Below are positions 7 through 17,922 of a stretch of 21,401 nucleotides of DNA, piece after piece. The position numbers and the translations under genes were made by a program. The DNA lies in assembly GCA_964515555.1 (NCBI GenBank), contig CAZEVY010000094.1, forward strand, positions 1 through 21,401, given 5' to 3'. Position 1 is the stretch's first letter. Each line of letters opens with the position of its first letter. The stretch is from an uncultured Solibacteraceae bacterium. GTDB lineage: Bacteria > Acidobacteriota > Terriglobia > Bryobacterales > Bryobacteraceae. Below the pieces are notes generated by a model. That model saw only the letters and a program-made list of their open reading frames with translations. It did no database searches and had not been told where the DNA came from.

Positions 7-945
7 GTGGCGACCCCGGTGACCAATCCGCTTCCCGCCAAGATCGCCGCCGGCGGACTGCGGCGCGACACCGACCTCTCGGCCGCCGAGCTCCAGCAAC
101 TGCTCGCGCTCGCCGAGCAGGTGAAGCGCGCCCCGGCGCGATTCCGCAAGGCGCTCGACGGGCGCTACCTGAGCCTGCTGTTCGAGAAGCCCTCGCTGCG
201 CACGCGCCTCACCTTCGAGCTGGCGATGAAGCAGCTCGGGGGCGACGCGGTGGTCTCTTCCGGACCGGTGGCCGAGCGCGAGCCGGTGCGCGACGTGGCG
301 CGCAATCTCGACCGGTGGACGAACGCCATCGTGGCGCGCGTGTTTTCGCAGGACACCATCGAGGAGCTGGCGCGATGGTCGGCCGTGCCCGTCGTCAACG
401 CGCTCAGCAATCTCTACCATCCCTGCCAGGCGCACGCCGACCTGCTGACGATGCGCGAGCGCTTCGGCCGCCTGCGCGGGCTGAAGCTGGCCTACATCGG
501 CGACGGCAACAACGTCTCGCACTCGCTGCTGCTCAACGCGCCGCGCCTGGGCGTCGACGTCACCGTGGCGGCCCCGGCGGGCTTCGAGCCGAAGGAGGCC
601 ATCGTCGAGGAGGCGCGCGAGCTGAGCGACGGCGCGCGGGTCGAGGTGACCAACGACGTGCGCGAGGCCGTCGGCGGAGCGCACGCGGTCTACACCGACG
701 TCTGGGCGAGCATGGGGCAGGAGGCCGAGCGCGAGCGGCGCACGGCGGCGTTCCGCTCCTACCAGGTGGACGAGGCGCTGATGGCGCGGGCGCGGGAGGA
801 CGCGGTATTTCTGCACTGCCTGCCGGCGCGCCGCGGCGAGGAGGTCGCTGAAGGGGTGATCGATTCGCCGCAGTCGGCGGTCTTCGACCAGGCCGAGAAT
901 CGCCTGCACGTGCAGAAGGCGCTGCTGCTGATGCTGCTGGCGTGA
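7..945 (+). CDS. argF: ornithine carbamoyltransferase; start may lie at or upstream of nt 7 because the frame is open to the window edge
   Basis: Carries the carbamoyl-phosphate binding motif S-L-R-T-R (KPSLRTRLTFE) and the HCLP motif. Length is about 310 aa, matching the OTC/ATCase fold. It lies directly upstream of argG and argH. Confidence 0.85.
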   Translation: MATPVTNPLPAKIAAGGLRRDTDLSAAELQQLLALAEQVKRAPARFRKALDGRYLSLLFEKPSLRTRLTFELAMKQLGGDAVVSSGPVAEREPVRDVARNLDRWTNAIVARVFSQDTIEELARWSAVPVVNALSNLYHPCQAHADLLTMRERFGRLRGLKLAYIGDGNNVSHSLLLNAPRLGVDVTVAAPAGFEPKEAIVEEARELSDGARVEVTNDVREAVGGAHAVYTDVWASMGQEAERERRTAAFRSYQVDEALMARAREDAVFLHCLPARRGEEVAEGVIDSPQSAVFDQAENRLHVQKALLLMLLA

Positions 946-979
946 AGCCCGCGCGCGCGGCGCGCCATACTGGAATTCT

Positions 980-2182
<1,203 letters not shown>

Positions 2183-2186
2183 CGCG

Positions 2187-3569
2187 ATGAAGCTCTGGGG
2201 CGGCCGGTTCGACGAAGGCCCGTCGGAGGTCTTCGAGCGCTTCTCCGGCTCGCTCCACTTCGACCGGCGGCTGCTCGAGGCGGACGTGCGCGGGTCGCAG
2301 GCGTTCGCGCGGGCCCTGGAGCGCGCCGGGATTCTCACGGGCGGGGAGCGCGAGCGGATCGTGGCGGCGTTCGACCGCATCCTCGCTGATTCCGCGGCGC
2401 CGGCCTTCTTCGAGAGCGCGAGCGACGAGGACGTCCACACGCTGGCGATCCGCAAGCTCGGCGAGCTGGAGCCGGAACTGGCGGCGAAGATCCACACGGG
2501 GCGCAGCAGAAACGAGCAGGTCTCACTCGACACGCGATTGTGGCTGCGCGGGGAGATCGACCGCATCCGCGCGCGGCTGGTGGATCTGATGGAGGCGCTG
2601 GTGGGGCTGGCGCGGCGCCATCCGGACGCGGTCGTGCCGGGCTACACGCACCTGCGGCGGGCGCAGGCGGTGCTGTGGCCGCACTATCTCCTCGCGTACT
2701 TCGAGATGTTCGCGCGCGACTGGGAGCGGCTGGGGGAGGCCCGGCGGCGGACGAGCGTGCTGCCGCTGGGGTCGGGGGCGCTGGCCGGGAGCGGGTTTCC
2801 GTTCGACCGCGAGGCGATCGCGCACGACCTGGGATTCGAGGCCGTGTCGCGCAACAGCATGGACGTATCGGCGGACCGCGACTTCGCGCTCGACTTCCTG
2901 CACGCCGCCTCGACCTCGATGCTGCACCTGAGCCGGCTGGCGGAGGATTGGATTCTGTATTCGAGCGACGAATTCGGGTGGCTGGAGCTGGCGGACGCCG
3001 TGACGAGCGGGTCGTCGCTGATGCCGCAGAAGAAAAATCCCGATTCACTGGAGCTGATTCGGGGGAAATGCGGGCGGGTATTTGGCTGTTATTCGTCGTT
3101 ATTCGTGACAATGAAGGGGCTGCCCTCGACCTACAATCGCGACATGCAGGAGGATAAGGAGCCGCTGTTCGAGGCGGCCGACCAGTGGGCGGCGTCGCTC
3201 GAGATGGCGCGGGTGGTGGCGGAATCGGCGAAGCTGCGCGGGGAGGCGCCGGCCAGGGCGGCCGAAGAGAGCTGGGTAGTGGCGACCGATCTCGCCGAGG
3301 CGCTGGCTCGCGCGGGTGTGCCGTTCCATCGCGCGCATCAGCTTGTTGGGAAGCTCGTGTTGGAAAGCGTGAAGGCGGGGAAGGCGCCGTCGGCGTGGAC
3401 GGCGGTGGATCTGGCGGCGTTCGCGCCGGAGTTCACGGCGGAGATGGCGCGCCTGCTGGCCCCGGCGGAGGGGATGAAGTCGCGCGAGATTCCGGGTGGC
3501 ACGGGTCCGCGCACGGTGGCGGCGGCATTGGACGAGGCTTCGCGGCGCCTCGATGAAATGCGGCGATGA
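2187..3569 (+). CDS. argH: argininosuccinate lyase
   Basis: Fumarate-lyase signature GSSLMPQKKNPD is present. The 460 aa length fits. The ATG sits 4 nt after the argG stop. Confidence 0.95.
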   Translation: MKLWGGRFDEGPSEVFERFSGSLHFDRRLLEADVRGSQAFARALERAGILTGGERERIVAAFDRILADSAAPAFFESASDEDVHTLAIRKLGELEPELAAKIHTGRSRNEQVSLDTRLWLRGEIDRIRARLVDLMEALVGLARRHPDAVVPGYTHLRRAQAVLWPHYLLAYFEMFARDWERLGEARRRTSVLPLGSGALAGSGFPFDREAIAHDLGFEAVSRNSMDVSADRDFALDFLHAASTSMLHLSRLAEDWILYSSDEFGWLELADAVTSGSSLMPQKKNPDSLELIRGKCGRVFGCYSSLFVTMKGLPSTYNRDMQEDKEPLFEAADQWAASLEMARVVAESAKLRGEAPARAAEESWVVATDLAEALARAGVPFHRAHQLVGKLVLESVKAGKAPSAWTAVDLAAFAPEFTAEMARLLAPAEGMKSREIPGGTGPRTVAAALDEASRRLDEMRR

Positions 3570-4000
3570 ACAAGAAGCTGCGCCAGGCGAGGATTCTGAA
3601 GCTGATCGGCGCCGGCGGGATTCACACGCAGGAGGAGCTGGCGCGGGCGCTGGCGCGGGTGGGCGTGCAGACGACGCAGGTGACGCTGTCGCGCGACATC
3701 CACGAGCTGGGGCTGGTGAAGACGCCGCACGGGTACCGGCAGATGGGCGCCGCGAGCGCGGGTCCGCCGCTGGCGACGATGGCGGCGGAGTTTCTGACCG
3801 AGGTGAAGGTGGCGCAGAATCTGGTGGTGCTGCGCACGACGCCGGGCAACGCGAATTCGCTCGCTGTCGCGCTCGATCGGGAGGAGTGGGCGGACGTGAC
3901 GGGGACGATCGCGGGCGACGACACGGTGCTGGTGATCGCGCCGGACAAGGGGTCGGCGGCGCGGGTAGAGGTGCGGCTGCGGGAGATGATTGGGTCGTGA
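3566..4000 (+). CDS. argR: arginine repressor
   Basis: The 144 aa product has an N-terminal winged-helix region (ELARAL...VTQVTLSRDIHELGLVK). The C-terminal oligomerisation and arginine-binding motif GTIAGDDTVLVI is present. Its ATG overlaps the argH stop as ATGA. Confidence 0.85.
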   Translation: MNKKLRQARILKLIGAGGIHTQEELARALARVGVQTTQVTLSRDIHELGLVKTPHGYRQMGAASAGPPLATMAAEFLTEVKVAQNLVVLRTTPGNANSLAVALDREEWADVTGTIAGDDTVLVIAPDKGSAARVEVRLREMIGS

Positions 4001-4010
4001 ATGATATGGC

Positions 4011-4086
4011 CGCAGATGAACGCAGATTAACGCAGATGGGACAATCCTTTCAATCTTAATCTGTGTTCATCGGCATTCATCTGTGG
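4011..4086. repeat. AT-rich iteron-like array: three direct CGCAGAT repeats at 10-bp phasing, followed by two inverted ATCTGTG copies 20 bp apart
   Basis: The three direct CGCAGAT copies sit at 4012-4018, 4022-4028 and 4032-4038. Inverted copies ATCTGTG sit at 4060-4066 and 4080-4086, with TTCATC motifs at 4067-4072 and 4077-4082. Local GC is far below the window mean. The array lies between the convergent 3' ends of argR and vapC. Confidence 0.5.
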
Positions 4087-4169
4087 CCGGTAAATTCTAT
4101 TCGGGACAGGATACGAATGCGACCTCCACGATTGGATGTGTGAGGAGCGGGTCATGCCGCAACGCGCGA

Positions 4170-4529
4170 TCAAGCCAGCGGTACGACCTTCGACGCGAGC
4201 ATACGCCGGTCGCGGGTCACCAGCGGCGTTCCGTGACGAATGCTGGTCGCGGCGATGATCTCGTCGGCGGGGTCGGAGCGAAAATCGAGGCTGGCGAGAT
4301 GGCGGCACACTTCCAAATCGAGGGGAAAGATGACGACGGGCGCCAGGGCGCGGGCAAACTCCGCCGAATCGATATCCATCTCGATTCTTCCCAACTGAGC
4401 CAGCTTAGTAAGCTCCCATAAAACGATCGCGGAAATCGCCCATTGGTCCCCGGCAAGCAATCGATTCTCGCGTGCCGTCAACCGGCCCCCGAGCGCATGG
4501 ATCAGGATGTGCGTGTCAAGATTCAGCAT
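4170..4529 (-). CDS. vapC: PIN-domain toxin of a type II toxin-antitoxin pair (VapC-like)
   Basis: The 119 aa product has the N-terminal MLNLDTHILIHAL motif with the conserved acidic D. Its size and spacing fit a PIN nuclease. It overlaps the upstream antitoxin gene by 14 nt. Confidence 0.8.
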   Translation of the reverse strand: MLNLDTHILIHALGGRLTARENRLLAGDQWAISAIVLWELTKLAQLGRIEMDIDSAEFARALAPVVIFPLDLEVCRHLASLDFRSDPADEIIAATSIRHGTPLVTRDRRMLASKVVPLA

Positions 4530-4734
4530 CCCACTTCACCCCGGTCGAGAGGATGTCGCCGCGAACCTTGATTCTGCCCTTCAGGCTGCCAATGAGCGAA
4601 GCGCAGCTCTGGTTCGCTGGAAGCAGGCGGCCCACAGGCTTGCCGTGCTTGGTGATGACGATTCCGTCGGCGTCGAGACGATCGAGCAGGGAAAGACACT
4701 GCTCCTTGAATTTCGAGGCGCTGATGGTCCGCAC
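4516..4734 (-). CDS. Phd/YefM-family antitoxin partnered with vapC
   Basis: The 72 aa product contains ISASKFKEQCLSLLDRL...VITKHGKPVGRLLP, matching the Phd/YefM consensus (ISATEAR..LSELLD....VVITRHGKPVAVL). It has a GTG start. Its 3' end overlaps the vapC start. Confidence 0.75.
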   Translation of the reverse strand: MRTISASKFKEQCLSLLDRLDADGIVITKHGKPVGRLLPANQSCASLIGSLKGRIKVRGDILSTGVKWDAES

Positions 4735-4883
4735 GAGTCCATCCTAACAGATAAGCCACATATTATGACCAGTCACTTTTTCCGTCCACATGGCACTGAT
4801 GACGAAGGCGCTCTTTCGGTGGCTTTACCTGGCGCTGGCGGAATAGTCGGGGCCATCTTTCGATAAGCACCACAAGAAAGTGG

Positions 4884-4911
4884 TTGACAAATTCGAATGC
4901 GCCCCTATAAT
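4884..4911 (+). promoter_or_regulatory. near-consensus sigma70 promoter: TTGACA, 16-nt spacer, TATAAT
   Basis: TTGACA sits at 4884-4889 and TATAAT at 4906-4911, both exact hexamers. Both lie in an AT-rich patch of a GC-rich genome. The promoter points toward the tRNA-like element and the SPFH gene. Confidence 0.5.
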
Positions 4912-5024
4912 CGTAAAGAGTGAGGTCAATGCTTATGCACGCCTATGGTCGAGGTTCGAAAAGCCTCGCCGGTGCGGCTTCCCTGAAGCACCGCATGCCG
5001 GCGTGCGTCGGCGACTTCGCTGTC

Positions 5025-5096
5025 ACGCTCGTAGCTCAATTGCAGAGCACCGATCAGTTGAATCGGCGGTTGCGGGTTCGAATCCCGCCATTGAGT
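5025..5096 (+). tRNA. degenerate or chimeric tRNA-like element: a possible tRNA pseudogene or integration-site remnant, not a functional tRNA
   Basis: Cloverleaf spacing is canonical. Positions 8-9 are TA. The D-arm is GCTC/AATTGCA/GAGC. The anticodon arm is CCGAT/CAGTTGA/ATCGG. The T-arm GCGGG-TTCGAAT-CCCGC is perfect. The acceptor strands ACGCTCG and CATTGAG do not pair. Position 33 is A, so the loop is an Asn-GTT-like CAGTTGA with U33 changed to A and A37 changed to G. Confidence 0.35.
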
Positions 5097-5337
5097 CTGG
5101 TCGACAGCCAATAACACGCTGATCCGGGCACGCCCCGTCCGGTTCGACCGGAGGCGGCGGCCGTTGCCCTGAGCTTCCTGGAAACTGCCACCTACAACAC
5201 GAAGGCCGGAGTGTCCGCGCCCGCGGCGACGCCGAGGCCGAGTCGCGACGTGCGCTCATAGGGAACGCCCGCGGCGGCTGTCGTGGGGCAGGCCCGGGTC
5301 ATCGAAACAAACGATTCGAAGAGGGAGGTGGACGACA

Positions 5338-6465
5338 ATGCTGATCCTGACGCGCATCCTGGTTGGGGACCAGGAGCGCATTCTGATGAATTCCCGCGGG
5401 CGCTTCGTGACCATCCTGGAGCCGGGCGAGCACTGGGTATGGACGCTGGGGCGCGACATCCGCACCGAGACGCACGAGATCCGCAAGCTGGTTTTCACCA
5501 GCGAGTGGTCCGACTACCTGGTGAGGGAGCGCGCCGAGCTCGTGGCGCGGCTCTTCACGCTGGTGGAGACCGGCGACTCCCAGGTGGCCATCATCCGCCT
5601 CGACGGAAAGGTCGCCGGGGTGCTGGAGCCGGCGCGGCGCGTGCTGTACTGGCGCGGGCCGGTGGAGGTGTCGGCCGAGACGATCGACGTGAAGGCGGCG
5701 CCGGAGGTTCCGCAGCGGCTGGCGATGGCGCTGGCGCGGCTGGGGACCGAGGCGCGCGTGACCTGGGCGCAGGTGGAGGAGGGGAAGACGGCGCTGCTGT
5801 TCGTCGAGAACCGCTTCGTGCGCGCCCTGGAGCCGGGGATGCACGCGTTCTGGAACGCGGCGTCGCCGCGCGTCGAGGTGGTGGACCTGCGTTTGCAGGC
5901 GATGGAGGTCGCGGGTCAGGAGATCCTGACTTCGGACAAGGTAGCCATTCGCGTGAACCTGTGGGCGACCTACCAGGTGGTGGACGCGGTGAAGGCGCGC
6001 CAGTCGCTGAAGGACGCGACCGATCACCTGTACAAGACGTTGCAGCTGGCCGTGCGCCAGACGCTCGGGAAGCGGACGCTGGAACAGATCCTGGAGGAGA
6101 AGACCGCCATCGACGAGTCGGTGGCGGGAGAGGTCCGCCGGGAGATGGAGCAGTACGGGGTCCGCGTCGGGTCCATCGCTCTGAAGGACATCGTGCTTCC
6201 GGGCGAGGTGCGCGACATCCTGAACCAGGTGGTGACGGCGGAGAAGCAGGCGCAGGCCAACCTGATCCGCCGGCGCGAGGAGACGGCGGCCACGCGGTCG
6301 CTGTTGAACACGGCGCGGCTCATGGAGGGGAACCCGCTGCTGGTTCGCCTGAAGGAGCTGGAGACGCTGGAGGCGGTCGCGGCCAAGGTGGATAAGATCA
6401 CCATCCACGAAGGCTTCGACGGTCTGCTTCAGAAGCTGGTGAGTTTGCGCGGGGAGAATAGCTGA
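5338..6465 (+). CDS. SPFH/band-7 (stomatin/prohibitin/HflKC-like) domain protein with a repeat-containing N-terminal extension
   Basis: The C-terminal 200 aa is a classic SPFH domain (ILTSDKVAIRVNLWATYQVVD...LEQILEEKTAIDE...GVRVGSIALKDIVLP...AEKQAQANLIRRREETAA). A GGAGG ribosome-binding site sits 9 nt upstream of the ATG. Confidence 0.85.
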   Translation: MLILTRILVGDQERILMNSRGRFVTILEPGEHWVWTLGRDIRTETHEIRKLVFTSEWSDYLVRERAELVARLFTLVETGDSQVAIIRLDGKVAGVLEPARRVLYWRGPVEVSAETIDVKAAPEVPQRLAMALARLGTEARVTWAQVEEGKTALLFVENRFVRALEPGMHAFWNAASPRVEVVDLRLQAMEVAGQEILTSDKVAIRVNLWATYQVVDAVKARQSLKDATDHLYKTLQLAVRQTLGKRTLEQILEEKTAIDESVAGEVRREMEQYGVRVGSIALKDIVLPGEVRDILNQVVTAEKQAQANLIRRREETAATRSLLNTARLMEGNPLLVRLKELETLEAVAAKVDKITIHEGFDGLLQKLVSLRGENS

Positions 6466-6552: not shown

Positions 6553-9432
6553 CTATTGGAGGGCCGACAGCTCGGTCCTCGCCTTGGCGATCAGGCCGAG
6601 ATCCGGATCCGCCTCTTTCCACCACTCCAGCAGCTCGCTGTACTGCCGATTCGCCTTGGCGGCGTCGCCTGCCATCGCCAGCGATCGCGCCAGTTGCAGG
6701 CGGGCGACGACGATAATCGGATCGGGACCGTTGAAGCCGGTCCGGGAGACGATGGACTGAAACTCCGCGGCGGCATCCGCGCCGCGGCGCAGGGCGAGAT
6801 TCGCGAGTCCGCGAACATACGTCGGCAGCATGTGGCCGTAGTCGGAATCGAAGGCGAGCCCGGGGAGATACAGTTCCGTGGATCGAGCCGGCTTCAGAAT
6901 TTCGAGCGCCCGGGCGGCCTGCCCGTTCCGCAGGGCGGCGAGGCCGCGCAGCACCGGCAGGTAGGTGGCCTGCACGGAGGTGTCCTCGGGATACCGTTGA
7001 TCCAGACTCATGGCGACGCTTTCCGTCCGGCTGACGTCTCCGGCGAGCGCGGCCGGGAGCGCCAGAGCGAACTCCAGGTCGCGGCCCGATTGCGCCAGAC
7101 GCCGGGCGTCGTCGAGACGGAGCCTCACTTCGGCCGGCCTGTCGAACAGCGCCAGCACATATGCCATCGCGGCGGCGAAGGTGGCGGCCCGTTCGGATCG
7201 GTCCGATTGCGCCGCCAGATCGGATGCGCGCCGCATGCGTTCGGATGCCAGGCGCAACTGCCCTCGAGAGGCCGCGGCCAATCCGTCGATCAGCGTCAGC
7301 GAATCCTCCCATCCGCTCTTGCCTCGGCTCTTCTCCAACTCGCGTTGCATCGCGGCGCGATCGCCTCTTAGGAATGCCAGACGGTAGCGCGCCACCCCGA
7401 GTTCCAGTCCATCCAGCCCATGCGCCTCGGCCTCCCGAAGCGTTTGAACGGCTTCGTCGAAGCGATTCAAATTCATTAAGGCGCTGGCGCGGGTAGCGTA
7501 CGGATAGATGCCCTTGGGGTTGAGTTGAGTCGACCGCCGGGATGCTTCAATCGCCAACTCAAACCGCGCCGTTCCCATGCTGGAGAATCCCGAAGTCAGC
7601 CCGGCGGCGAGCGAGTCGTCCGGGTAACGCTGAAACCACGCCTGGACCGCAGCGAGGGACTTTTCCAGATTGCCCCTGACCTGGCGTTCGTAAAGGAACG
7701 TGGTGTACAAGCGCTCGGGTTCGGTCATCCGATCGCGGAGCCCGTAGGCTTTGATGGTGGCCGCACGCGCCTGCCCGGCCTGCGCGACGCCGCTGTATCG
7801 AAGAGACACCTTGGCGTAAGCCATTCCGAATTCGGGATCGAGTTCGATCGCCCTCTGATAGAGCGGAATGGCAGAAGGGCCGGCATCGGTGTCTCCCTGA
7901 GTCGCCTGCGCGTAGACTTTGAGCGCCTGGAGCGAACGGGTGGTAACTTCCGGCAGAGGCCGCGGACGAGTCCCGGGAATCCGCGCCGATTCCACCAGTC
8001 CGCGGCTCAATTGCTTCGCCAGATCTCCGAACGCCGCCAGAACCTTCTCTTTTTCCGGGGCCTCCGTCTGATGTTCGGCTAATGTTCCTCCGGTGGCGCA
8101 GTTGAGCGCCTTCAGACCCAGCACGTAGGCGCTGCCCAGCCTCGCGATCGACCCGTTCACCACGGCCATACCGCCCAGACGTTCGCACACCTCGCGCGCC
8201 AGCTCCGGCGTCGGCGGTCTCTCCTCGGTCCGGCGCATCAGTTGCAGCATGAACCGGATCCGCGCGTCCGGGGCCACGTCCGCCGGCTTCGCTTCCGACA
8301 TGTGGACCAACAGCCGCTGGCGAAGCAGCTCGTCGAAAGTCGTGTCGCCGCTGGTATTGGTGAAACTCCCGACGACGAAAACAGGCCTCTCGACGGGCGC
8401 CGTGGGCGCGATCCGGAAACGGTAGGCGACTCCCGCGCCGATCAAGGCAAGCGCGGCTGCGCACAAGCCAACCCACCCGCGTCGCGACCGCCAGGCCGAT
8501 CGTTTCGGCACAAGGGCCGATCCGGCGAGCGTCGACGCCGTTGCCGGCTTCCCCGGATCCAGCTCTTCCAGGGCCGCCTGCACTTCGCCCATCTCCGCAT
8601 AACGATCGTCGCGATTCTTCTCCAGGCATCTGGCGACGATGGCGTCCAGGGCGTTGGGCAGCGACGGGTTCAGCTTGGTCGGCACGGGGGGCGTTTGGTG
8701 CAGGACCCCGCCGAGGATTTCCGCGGTCGTGGATCCCGGAAATGCACGGCGGCCGGTCGCCATCTCGAACAGCAGAACGCCAAACGAGAAGATGTCGGTG
8801 CGCGTGTCGATCTCTTCGCCGCGCACCTGCTCGGGGCTCATATACGGAGCGGTACCGACCACCAGACCCGTACCGGTGAAACCCGTATCGTCGGCCGCTT
8901 GCTGGCTGACCTGCTTGGCAAGTCCGAAATCCAGTACGCGGGCATCGCCGCGCCGGTTAACCAGGGCGTTGGCAGGTTTGATGTCGCGATGAATGATGCC
9001 GGCGGAGTGAGCGGCGGCCAAGGCGTCGACGATCTGGATCGCGAGCTTGCGAAGCTGCGGGACCGGCAGCGGCCCGCGCGCGATCAAGTCCTTGAGGGTC
9101 TCGCCTTCGAGGTACTCCATCACGATGAAGGAGCGGCCGTTCGATTCCCCGATATCGTATATGGCGCAAATATGCGGATGGTTCAGCGCCGACAGAGCAC
9201 GCGCCTCGCGCTGAAAGCGGGCGTCGAATTGCGCATGAGAAATCTTGATGGCCACTTTGCGGCCCAGACGGGTATCCTCGGCCAGAAACACCTGGCCCAT
9301 GCCACCCTGTCCAATCGGAGAAAGAAGCTGATAGGGGCCGAGGCGTTCCCCGCCGGTTGCCAGGCTAAGAGTCTTGTCGGCGTCGGCGGTGCCGTCCGGG
9401 TTCACGGTATGCGTCCTGCGCGAACATACCAA
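6553..9432 (-). CDS. Hanks-type Ser/Thr protein kinase with one transmembrane segment and a large C-terminal TPR-like, probably periplasmic, domain
   Basis: The N-terminus has IGQGGMGQVF, VAIK and HRDIKPANALV, followed by DFG and SPE. A transmembrane helix WVGLCAAALALIGAGVAYRF follows. About 600 aa of TPR-like helical repeats then run to the C-terminus. The annotated start is a TTG from the ORF track. The true start may be an internal GTG. Confidence 0.85.
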   Translation of the reverse strand: MVCSRRTHTVNPDGTADADKTLSLATGGERLGPYQLLSPIGQGGMGQVFLAEDTRLGRKVAIKISHAQFDARFQREARALSALNHPHICAIYDIGESNGRSFIVMEYLEGETLKDLIARGPLPVPQLRKLAIQIVDALAAAHSAGIIHRDIKPANALVNRRGDARVLDFGLAKQVSQQAADDTGFTGTGLVVGTAPYMSPEQVRGEEIDTRTDIFSFGVLLFEMATGRRAFPGSTTAEILGGVLHQTPPVPTKLNPSLPNALDAIVARCLEKNRDDRYAEMGEVQAALEELDPGKPATASTLAGSALVPKRSAWRSRRGWVGLCAAALALIGAGVAYRFRIAPTAPVERPVFVVGSFTNTSGDTTFDELLRQRLLVHMSEAKPADVAPDARIRFMLQLMRRTEERPPTPELAREVCERLGGMAVVNGSIARLGSAYVLGLKALNCATGGTLAEHQTEAPEKEKVLAAFGDLAKQLSRGLVESARIPGTRPRPLPEVTTRSLQALKVYAQATQGDTDAGPSAIPLYQRAIELDPEFGMAYAKVSLRYSGVAQAGQARAATIKAYGLRDRMTEPERLYTTFLYERQVRGNLEKSLAAVQAWFQRYPDDSLAAGLTSGFSSMGTARFELAIEASRRSTQLNPKGIYPYATRASALMNLNRFDEAVQTLREAEAHGLDGLELGVARYRLAFLRGDRAAMQRELEKSRGKSGWEDSLTLIDGLAAASRGQLRLASERMRRASDLAAQSDRSERAATFAAAMAYVLALFDRPAEVRLRLDDARRLAQSGRDLEFALALPAALAGDVSRTESVAMSLDQRYPEDTSVQATYLPVLRGLAALRNGQAARALEILKPARSTELYLPGLAFDSDYGHMLPTYVRGLANLALRRGADAAAEFQSIVSRTGFNGPDPIIVVARLQLARSLAMAGDAAKANRQYSELLEWWKEADPDLGLIAKARTELSALQ

Positions 9433-16731: not shown

Positions 16732-17922
16732 TCAGCGGCCGTTCGTCCCTCGATCCGCCACCACCGCGACCACGTCGACGGCGAAGGACGCGTCTAGCGA
16801 CGGCAGGCCTTCGAACAGCAGCATGGTGCTGGCCGGCGGGCGCGAGCGGTCGTAGAACTCGAAGCGCAGCGCACGCACCTTGTCGGTCATGACCGAGCTG
16901 AGCGGATAGATGGATGACATGGCCACATGGCGCAGCGACGCACCGGTCGGCTCCATCGACTTGGAGAGACGCTCGAAGGCCAGGCGCACGTCATCGTCCT
17001 GCGCGCGGAAGGCCAGCTGCGACCCGGACAGCGCGACTCGCCCGGCGCCCACCAGCGCCACCTGCGAGTAGTTCGGCGAGGAAGCCAGGCCGGGCGGATT
17101 CACCAGCTTCAAGGGCGCGCCCGGCGGCGACTTCAGGCGCGCCACGGCCTCGCACTCCACGAGCCCCCGGGTGTGGCCGCGCTGCATCTGCACGAAGTTC
17201 AGCGCCGCATTCGGGTACTCGGCGCCGGCCAGCCGGCGAACCGCGTCCAGGTCGTGCAGCGACGAGCAGAAGCACGTCGCCCGCATCACATCGGCGGGGG
17301 CGAGCCCGGCGCCCGCCAGCGCGGTGCGCAACTGCCCGATCGACTTGGCCGCCAGGGGCTCGATGTTGAGCAGCTCCTCGTCGGCCGAGACCGCCTGGCC
17401 GGAGAGAAACGCCAGGCCATGCGGATTCACGTCGCGCCGCCCGGCCGAGACGGCTTCGAGTACCACCTGCGCGCCTTCCATCGGGAGCGCGCCGACCTGC
17501 ACGACGGTGATCACCGGCAGCGCGGCGCGGCGGGCGGAGAACTCCTCGCTGACGACCGCCTGGACGCGGCGCAGATCGCCGGTCCCCGCCACGAAGGCGC
17601 GCAGGCGGACGATGTTCGCGCCGCCGTTGAGGCGTCCGATCGCTTTGATGCCGTCGCGGACCTGCTGCGAGAGCAGTCCCTTGGGGCTCATCGGCGCGAC
17701 CTGAAAGGAGAGCTTGCGCGTCTCGGCGACGATGGCCGCCGGCGGATCGGGAAGGTCTTCCAGCGTCTGCGTGACCTCGGTCTTGGCCTTCTTCTTCCCC
17801 AGAACCTTCTCTTCGAGGACCGGCGGAAGGACCAGGTCGTCTTCCTGCTTCTTGCGTTTTTGCGGCTGCGATACCTGCGCGAGCGCGAGGATCGCCAGCG
17901 CGGTGACGAAAACTCGAAGCAT
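16732..17922 (-). CDS. secreted tandem RidA/YjgF-like (endoribonuclease L-PSP fold) domain protein
   Basis: A signal peptide MLRVFVTALAILALA is followed by a Lys-rich linker. Two RidA-like modules follow, the first containing VAGTGDL...FSARRAALPVITVVQVGALPMEGAQVVLEAV. Confidence 0.6.
   Translation of the reverse strand: MLRVFVTALAILALAQVSQPQKRKKQEDDLVLPPVLEEKVLGKKKAKTEVTQTLEDLPDPPAAIVAETRKLSFQVAPMSPKGLLSQQVRDGIKAIGRLNGGANIVRLRAFVAGTGDLRRVQAVVSEEFSARRAALPVITVVQVGALPMEGAQVVLEAVSAGRRDVNPHGLAFLSGQAVSADEELLNIEPLAAKSIGQLRTALAGAGLAPADVMRATCFCSSLHDLDAVRRLAGAEYPNAALNFVQMQRGHTRGLVECEAVARLKSPPGAPLKLVNPPGLASSPNYSQVALVGAGRVALSGSQLAFRAQDDDVRLAFERLSKSMEPTGASLRHVAMSSIYPLSSVMTDKVRALRFEFYDRSRPPASTMLLFEGLPSLDASFAVDVVAVVADRGTNGR

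Follow-up and report, generated by a model that had tools for sequence, protein, structure and literature searches.

The abstract of the 2016 study by Burroughs and Aravind reportedly describes SPFH/Band-7 modules as cofactors that may act as scaffolds and have a novel tRNA-like molecule as their cognate partner. Here we analyze a tRNA-like element located upstream of a slipin (SPFH/Band-7) gene in a 21.4-kb contig of 67% GC from an uncultured Solibacteraceae bacterium (CAZEVY010000094.1). The whole contig is referred to as the window, and features lie on its forward strand unless stated otherwise.

The closest described class of RNA is the b7a-tRNA (band-7-associated tRNA). Wang, Chen, Wolin and Xiong attribute to Burroughs and Aravind (2016, NAR 44:8525) the prediction of b7a-tRNA next to Band-7 and RtcB, with a proposed role in RNA repair, and describe it as interchangeable in context with YrlA/Rsr (bioRxiv 10.1101/312249). 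Related systems are YrlA and other Y RNAs with Ro (Rsr) in the rsr-yrlBA-rtcBA operon (PMC4201824, PMC7790460), and the tRNA-mRNA units and L-arrays (PMC8421152, PMC4758250). SPFH proteins have also been found in connection with RNA repair. In Anabaena, the slipin alr0740 and the ‘hypothetical’ alr0739 are derepressed with rtcB and a 26-gene tRNA array in a trcR mutant and under translation stress (PMC10272220). The array, rtcB and slipin are merely co-regulated there, from separate loci. In P. aeruginosa, the rtc locus includes the gene for the SPFH protein PaFlo8 (2026 paper, PMC13086221).

Our analysis indicates that the element in the window is very probably a member of the b7a-tRNA-type family. 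It is predicted to be part of a structured RNA of about 380-420 nt (segment 4918-5300 of the window, about 380 nt). The window copy is a stand-alone, sigma70-driven, somewhat degenerate acidobacterial member of this predicted class.

Results

A tRNA-like domain without an acceptor stem

The tRNA-like domain (b7a-tRNA type, 5031-5089) begins about 120 nt downstream of the promoter. It was recognized by the Rfam tRNA model with a score of 39.9 bits (gathering score 29, E=2e-05). The match covers model positions 7-64 only, indicating that the acceptor stem is missing. ARAGORN found no tRNA and no tmRNA in the window, and neither ARAGORN nor the Rfam tmRNA models gave a match to a tmRNA, permuted forms included. 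These results agree with an earlier note on this DNA, which had described the element as degenerate and tRNA-like.

The three arms of the domain are fully paired. The D arm (5034-5048) consists of the stem GCTC/GAGC (5034-5037 and 5045-5048, 4/4 pairs) and the loop AATTGCA. The anticodon arm (5050-5066) has the stem CCGAT/ATCGG (5050-5054 and 5062-5066, 5/5 pairs) and the loop CAGTTGA, which contains A33 and GTT. A variable region (5067-5071) separates it from the T arm GCGGG-TTCGAAT-CCCGC (5072-5088, 5/5 pairs). The tRNA spacing, the flawless T arm and the A in place of U33, all pointed out in the earlier note, can be read directly from the sequence. The D loop, AAUUGCA in the RNA, has no GG and thus no G18G19. 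The strands at the acceptor position, ACGCTCG (5025-5031) and CATTGAG (5089-5095), are non-complementary as the note had described, and pair only at G7:C66 (G5031:C5089). In the family, the acceptor helix is 5 bp long, not 7 bp. The minimum free energy (MFE) fold of the isolated tRNA-like region does not give the cloverleaf, and MFE folds of long stretches are uninformative (z=-2.2 for 4918-5340, z=-0.85 for 4995-5145).

A covarying junction and a 3' domain flank the tRNA-like domain

RNAalifold analysis of 21 acidobacterial leaders gave a three-way junction together with the D, anticodon and T arms. The junction (4939-5004) is closed by helix P1 (4939-4943/5000-5004). It contains helix H1 (4950-4954/4964-4968), with the loop UUCGAAAAG, and helix H2 (4972-4981/4985-4996), with the loop CCU and a CA bulge. 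Pairing is 95-96% in P1, where 4/5 pairs have double changes, 90-95% in H1 and 99.5-99.8% in H2. The same junction is found in the single-sequence MFE fold of the window (z=-3.4, 0/200 shuffles). A second T-loop motif, GGTTCGAAA (4953-4961), and a GC hairpin (4971-4999) had been listed in the earlier note. Both are present, but they are not loose motifs: they are the H1 loop and the H2 helix of the junction.

The structure is supported by extensive covariation. Among 48 distinct sequences, standard pairs occupy 96.7% of the cells, compared to 35-50% in controls with slid partners. Changes on both sides are found in 24 of the 39 pairs, and none of 500 shuffles reaches the observed values. Every pair in the anticodon stem is covarying. 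The covariance model R1 scores 146.9 bits over 4939-5102. The compensatory changes in the three stems argue for selection for structure and not for decay, and the tRNA-shaped structure is kept by selection.

Downstream of the tRNA-like domain, alignment A5 revealed a 3' structured domain of about 180 nt (5121-5300). Its closing helix is formed by GAUCCGGGC.ACGCCCC (5121-5136) and GGGGC.AGGCCCGGGUC (5285-5300), and its inner blocks are conserved, including CCCUGAGCUUCCUGGAAACUGC. When 19 homologues were folded one at a time, most of them gave this closing helix again, and its strands show compensatory changes across relatives. An A-rich unstructured linker (5301-5322) leads to the Shine-Dalgarno (SD) sequence of slipin, GGGAGG (5323-5328), which is unpaired in the folds. 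No terminator-like site is present in 4000-6000, including the region between the RNA and slipin, and no sequestered SD was seen in the folds. This speaks for an RNA that functions in its own right rather than for a classical riboswitch.

The RNA is strictly linked to slipin

The first lead came from two slipin relatives with 66-67% identity (loci L001 and L002), in which a ‘tRNA-Ile’ with mismatches in its acceptor precedes slipin by about 270 nt. Its T arm is as in the window, and its 5' flank is nearly identical to the window region of GGTTCGAAA and the GC hairpin. The slipin homologues mark the window as acidobacterial and similar to Bryobacteraceae. Even the closest relatives of the window slipin share only about 69% identity with it. 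A scan of species-representative genomes with the slipin alignment gave 80 loci, and the leader was searched for with an nhmmer profile and then with the covariance model R1, over 84 sources. The RNA is located 5' of slipin on the same strand in 79 of them, usually 170-570 nt away; in the exceptions, the contigs end on the RNA side. The 79 loci span Acidobacteriota, Gamma-, Beta- and Alphaproteobacteria and Chloroflexota. In the window, slipin starts 249 nt downstream of the tRNA-like domain on the same strand. The junction is found in about 50 of the 79 loci, and a betaproteobacterial, mostly RtcR/RtcB-linked subset has the tRNA-like part only.

A reverse test was independent of the protein. 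A DNA pattern derived from helix H2 gave 36 metagenome contigs. Slipin is present on the same strand, 335-425 nt past the H2 motif, in all 29 contigs with at least about 500 nt downstream.

Two loci, L014 (1304-2428) and L050 (1501-2298), have a gap of 1.35-1.4 kb between the RNA and slipin. The gap in L014 contains an insertion sequence (IS) transposase (DDE_3), and the N-terminus of its slipin is altered. The gap in L050 contains a PhyH dioxygenase gene on the opposite strand. With an IS that inserted secondarily and a gene in between, these two are not free-standing RNA genes. Synteny of the module's flanks is not kept among relatives. In L001 (613-3359), the slipin RNA is immediately preceded by a DDE transposase gene and a group II intron; the intron carries a reverse transcriptase/maturase open reading frame (ORF) and an Rfam group-II-D1D4-4 match (2305-2444).

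The anticodon loop is highly variable. A total of 34 different loops are found in 48 acidobacterial-type sequences, the commonest being the Ile-like CUGAUAA. GUU is one variant among them, and there is no parent tRNA-Asn of the kind that the earlier note had proposed. Across phyla the loops measure 2-8 nt and include GAAA and GCAA tetraloops. ARAGORN labels homologues as Pyl, stop or ‘???’. The anticodon loop is therefore unconstrained, and the RNA non-decoding.

RNA-repair genes and tRNA arrays at homologous loci

RNA-repair genes recur next to the module. RtcB is located downstream on the same strand in 23 homologous loci, RtcR is divergently upstream in 12, including one of the acidobacterial type, and the ‘RNA repair pathway’ nucleotidyltransferase RlaP (PF10127) is present in 5. 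The locus of Citrobacter freundii starts with rtcR and continues with a sigma54 promoter (CTGGCACGCTTCTGGCA), a leader retaining the T arm, slipin and RlaP. E. coli STEC639 has the same order minus rtcR. In the enterobacterial leaders, which are too divergent to align, the model R1 recovers nothing but the T arm.

The enterobacterial island (2927-6880 in L085, 4690-6928 in L084) is located between a DUF3811 gene and lysC. Its leader of about 300 nt contains hairpins and the T arm UGGGUUCGAUUCCCA. A RelE/XRE toxin-antitoxin pair lies alongside in the Citrobacter island.

In many Proteobacteria, the slipin unit lies within or ends same-strand arrays of 4-23 tRNA genes. The order tRNA array, tRNA-like unit, slipin and RtcB is found in L035, L052, L061 and L062. 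The array in L059 has 23 tRNAs, and L077 is a further locus with the slipin unit in a long tRNA array. RtcB often follows slipin in such arrays, which links L-arrays to the Rtc RNA-repair operon.

Promoter and possible upstream ORF

The sigma70 promoter (4884-4911) is composed of the -35 element TTGACA (4884-4889), a 16-nt spacer and the -10 element TATAAT (4906-4911). The earlier note had called it a consensus promoter, and rightly: it matches at 12/12 positions and is the sole such match in 20 kb, the other match being only 9/12. Transcription would start near 4918. In 21 homologous leaders (alignment A2), the TTG of the -35 element is invariant and the next A nearly so, at the same position. 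About 10 of these 21 promoters have an inverted repeat, CCACCAC-N5-6-GTGG, between -35 and -10 (A2 columns 20-45). It resembles an operator, which suggests repressor control. The window has in its place a palindrome inside the spacer, ATTCGAAT (4891-4898), possibly for a different regulator. As judged from these elements, the window promoter is strong and probably repressor-controlled.

The predicted transcript begins with a purine-rich, SD-like block, GAGUGAGG (4918-4925, alignment A2). An ATG (4929 or 4935) comes next in Acidobacteriota, while Proteobacteria have a GAGGU-like block without a conserved ATG. A possible, though doubtful, ORF of 59 codons (4935-5114) extends across the junction and the tRNA-like domain. 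An SD and a start codon in the majority frame are present in 17 of the 21 acidobacterial leaders (16 ATG, one GTG). L012, L013, L018 and L024 have an ATG in another frame only, and L012 also has an in-frame GTG, already counted. The stops vary across leaders, and are located in the D stem, in the anticodon loop or past the element. The consensus peptide is M-I-A-x-x-R-G-S-K-R-L-A-G-A-A-S-L-K-H-R-M-P-A, with many third-position changes, and searches of Pfam and NCBIfam gave no match to it.

The slipin protein

The slipin gene (5338-6465) encodes a protein of 375 aa with a Pfam Band_7 match (6.9e-30). The AlphaFold model (pLDDT 84) has an all-beta region of beta repeats at residues 1-125, the SPFH domain at about 140-290 and long C-terminal helices, with no obvious membrane segment. 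Foldseek identified stomatin, HflK/C and the major vault protein (MVP) as similar structures. The similarity to MVP takes in the whole chain and extends over more than 440 columns (beta repeats, SPFH shoulder and cap helix), with modest TM-scores of 0.37-0.43. PADLOC and NCBIfam gave nothing specific to slipin, and look-ups of the exact slipin and VapC proteins led to no contig.

Neighboring genes

The genes argF, argG, argH and argR (7-4000) precede the element. Between them and the promoter, on the reverse strand, are the gene for a PIN domain protein (VapC, 4170-4529) and, upstream of it, a 78-aa ORF (4523-4759). The vapBC cassette of the earlier note is thus confirmed for PIN/VapC by the Pfam domain scan; vapB is assigned by position only, as the scan gave no match for the 78-aa ORF. 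The GC content falls to 0.50-0.60 over 3900-5100, which covers the vapBC segment and the intergenic region. No homologue of the window VapB or VapC is found beside any other slipin among the homologous loci compared, and we rejected vapBC as a functional partner on this ground. The PIN pair in L001/L002 is unrelated and located downstream. The low-GC vapBC segment is small and was probably inserted locally, with argR on one side and the promoter of the slipin RNA on the other.

A 15-nt direct repeat, TCGCTGTC(G/A)CGCTCG, is present at 3861-3875 and 5017-5031 with 14/15 identical positions. The former copy is within argR, and the latter covers exactly the non-pairing 5' acceptor strand. The repeat is probably due to chance (a rough estimate gives about 0.25 expected in the 1.6-kb region). 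It could also mark the event that destroyed the acceptor helix.

Downstream, a gene for a Ser/Thr kinase-TPR protein of 959 aa (6553-9432, reverse strand) is convergent with slipin. The protein scores strongly against the PD-T4-6 defence-kinase models of PADLOC (E down to 9e-90), which may reflect only the common kinase domain. A 396-aa protein further away (16732-17922, reverse strand) matches the endoribonuclease L-PSP (RidA) domain in three stretches. An L-PSP gene is also part of the TrcR translation-stress regulon of Anabaena; the ORF in the window is too distant from the tRNA-like element for any claimed link.

Discussion

A conserved RNA structure is strictly linked to slipin, and RNA-repair genes recurrently co-occur with the two. 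We propose that the sigma70 transcript would carry, in order, the purine-rich 5' block, the three-way junction, the tRNA-like core, the large hairpin domain, the A-rich linker with an exposed ribosome-binding site, and slipin. The RNA would share a transcript with slipin and probably be released from it by cleavage. The excised RNA and slipin, presumably bound to each other, would form an RNA-protein module in tRNA/RNA damage and translation stress, parallel to YrlA with Ro/Rsr in the rsr-yrlBA-rtcBA operon. The tRNA-shaped domain may serve as a handle or decoy for the RtcB ligase, the RlaP nucleotidyltransferase, RNase P/Z or tRNA-cutting toxins. As a whole, a b7a-tRNA-type element that is excised and acts with slipin in RNA damage or translation stress is a reading that we consider reasonably likely. 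That the RNA functions as a ribonucleoprotein partner, rather than only in cis, is a possibility we hold tentatively, somewhat short of probable. A further extension is speculative and, in all its parts together, rather improbable. Here the segment 4918-5300 would be a large RNA not described before, which is excised and becomes the RNA subunit of a cytosolic, vault-like slipin assembly that surveys or sequesters damaged tRNAs. The junction would be the sensing or protein-binding part. Slipin, RtcB and the horizontally transferred L-arrays would belong to a single system for translation stress and RNA repair.

Several points weigh against the proposal. The window copy has 1/7 acceptor pairs, and 1/5 of the inner ones, compared to 4-5/5 in 43 of the 47 complete relatives. 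No other complete copy has so few inner pairs. It is also the only copy without the D-loop GG, which is required for the tRNA elbow. The window copy may therefore be partly degenerate, with weakened tRNA mimicry. It is the most degenerate member in this respect; its junction and three arms are perfect. RtcB, RtcA, RtcR, RlaP and Rsr are absent from the scanned ORFs of the window, so the link to RNA repair rests on the homologues. The b7a-tRNA class itself is a computational prediction, reported as not experimentally validated (bioRxiv 10.1101/312249). Finally, the strict 5' position on the same strand fits a purely cis-acting leader equally well.

In such a leader, the tRNA-like fold would be a processing or punctuation signal for RNase P, Z or E, and the RNA by itself would do nothing. 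The cut would shorten the primary transcript, or the tRNA-array transcript in Proteobacteria, and leave a slipin mRNA with a stabilizing 5' hairpin domain. The RNA is indeed 5' of slipin with no terminator between them, and in Proteobacteria it directly follows genuine tRNA arrays, as in tRNA-mRNA operons. Most members keep a 5-bp acceptor-like helix and the T arm, and RNase P cleaves M. smegmatis YrlA at its tRNA-like domain (PMC4201824). However, a covarying three-way junction and a 3' domain exceed the needs of a cleavage signal, and the acceptor has just 5 bp, while for RNase P a length of 7 bp is a major determinant. In the window copy, the acceptor is gone and all the rest is retained, and RtcR-linked betaproteobacterial members keep the fold despite their anticodon tetraloops. 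We consider a leader of this kind unlikely, though it is the main rival. Control by a leader peptide or attenuation is less plausible still, and we regard it as very unlikely. The ORF with its SD and ATG (4929/4935) would be translated through the RNA, sense ribosome stalling and tune slipin; in a variant, a cut at the tRNA-like domain would produce a non-stop mRNA, as in arfA. The SD and ATG are located just 5' of P1 across the 21 acidobacterial leaders, third-position changes are many, and translation inhibitors induce the Anabaena slipin. Against this, the frame differs in 4/21 leaders, the stop positions are not conserved and the peptide has no family match. The nucleotide changes are compensatory in RNA helices, some of them giving non-conservative amino-acid changes, and proteobacterial members keep the purine block with no conserved ATG. 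An ArfA/BrfA-like non-stop design was downgraded because the frame changes, the stops vary and Proteobacteria lack the ATG.

The earlier note had offered two readings of the element. One, a tRNA-derived small RNA, was close to the mark, although the element is embedded in a larger covarying RNA next to slipin. The other was an attL/attR-type scar at the boundary of a vapBC islet, which would make it the remnant of a tRNA (Asn) gene left by integration, or else a decaying tRNA pseudogene. The GC dip over 3900-5100, the unpaired acceptor strands and the 15-nt direct repeat agree with a scar, as does the vapBC pair, which is beside no other slipin locus and so was probably inserted locally. The repeat, however, is at about chance level with its first copy inside argR. 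Both acceptor strands are aberrant and neither matches a real tRNA, whereas a true scar keeps one tRNA half. No integrase domain was found in 20 scanned ORFs of the window, and the T-arm sequence is unique in the window, with no second copy. The upstream motifs belong to the same conserved RNA, and the stems covary. Comparison of related loci, which the note had put forward as a check, went against it: the tRNA-like element is kept at the same place in 79 loci without this vapBC. The scar reading is thereby refuted for the tRNA-like element, and a remnant or pseudogene of any sort is extremely unlikely. The vapBC pair is a probable insertion, but its border is not what the tRNA-like element marks. 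There is next to no chance that the element is a functional, unusual tRNA-Asn (GUU) gene missed by the detectors. Its D, anticodon and T arms and their spacing are canonical; the 7-bp acceptor stem, U33, G18G19 and a call by a tRNA finder are all lacking (1/7 acceptor pairs, A33, ARAGORN negative), and homologues have arbitrary anticodons and loop sizes.

With about 115 relatives, the locus gives a precise, covariation-supported structure, a clear promoter and a strict cross-phylum RNA-protein linkage. It connects three subjects that have been studied apart, namely the functionally uncharacterized SPFH/slipin proteins, the Rtc regulon of RNA repair and the tRNA arrays induced by stress, and makes the role of a tRNA mimic with a cytosolic slipin directly testable. 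It is also a warning for annotation: elements of this type are mistaken for tRNAs with unusual anticodons (Pyl, stop, undetermined), tRNA pseudogenes or att scars. Rfam 15 has no family for this RNA. Our literature search, which did not cover Burroughs and Aravind (2016), gave no paper that connects slipin with tRNA arrays or that reports the junction. It may be that the junction, the 3' domain and the linkage to tRNA arrays are described here for the first time.

Comparison with known systems

The vault particle, composed of MVP and vault RNA, resembles the module in combining an MVP-type slipin fold with a cognate small structured RNA. The likeness is one of fold and logic only. The proteobacterial slipin units in or after same-strand tRNA arrays resemble tRNA-mRNA units and L-arrays. 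The window differs in having no array, and its single, non-decoding unit is flanked by structured domains that are not tRNAs.

Similarities to YrlA are more extensive. Both are noncoding RNAs embedded in an operon, with a tRNA-like domain and a putative scaffold protein. Non-decoding tRNA mimicry is common to both, and in enterobacterial relatives so is RtcR/sigma54 control. YrlA has the Ro-binding stem in place of an anticodon arm, whereas the window RNA has the D, anticodon and T arms in tRNA order. Membership in the YrlA family (RF02553) was rejected at 18.6 bits versus a gathering score of 69, as was membership in the Deinococcus Y RNA family (RF01053) at 18.2 bits versus 80; the analogy is kept in both cases. 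No Ro/TROVE gene was found among the scanned ORFs of the window.

The b7a-tRNA remains the closest match. As in that class, a tRNA-like noncoding RNA is located beside a Band-7/slipin gene and is spread over distant phyla, and RtcB, RtcR and a repair-type nucleotidyltransferase are found at homologous slipin loci. The window itself has the cloverleaf core with the T loop UUCGAAU and the adjoining Band-7/SPFH gene. The acceptor helix and the RNA-repair gene neighborhood, which also define the class, are present in relatives. The window copy differs in that it stands alone, with no ligase, RtcR or nucleotidyltransferase within 21 kb. It has a consensus sigma70 promoter, not sigma54/RtcR control, and without an acceptor stem it is not strongly like an authentic tRNA. 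Here the tRNA-like part has a covarying three-way junction on one side and a hairpin domain of 180 nt on the other.

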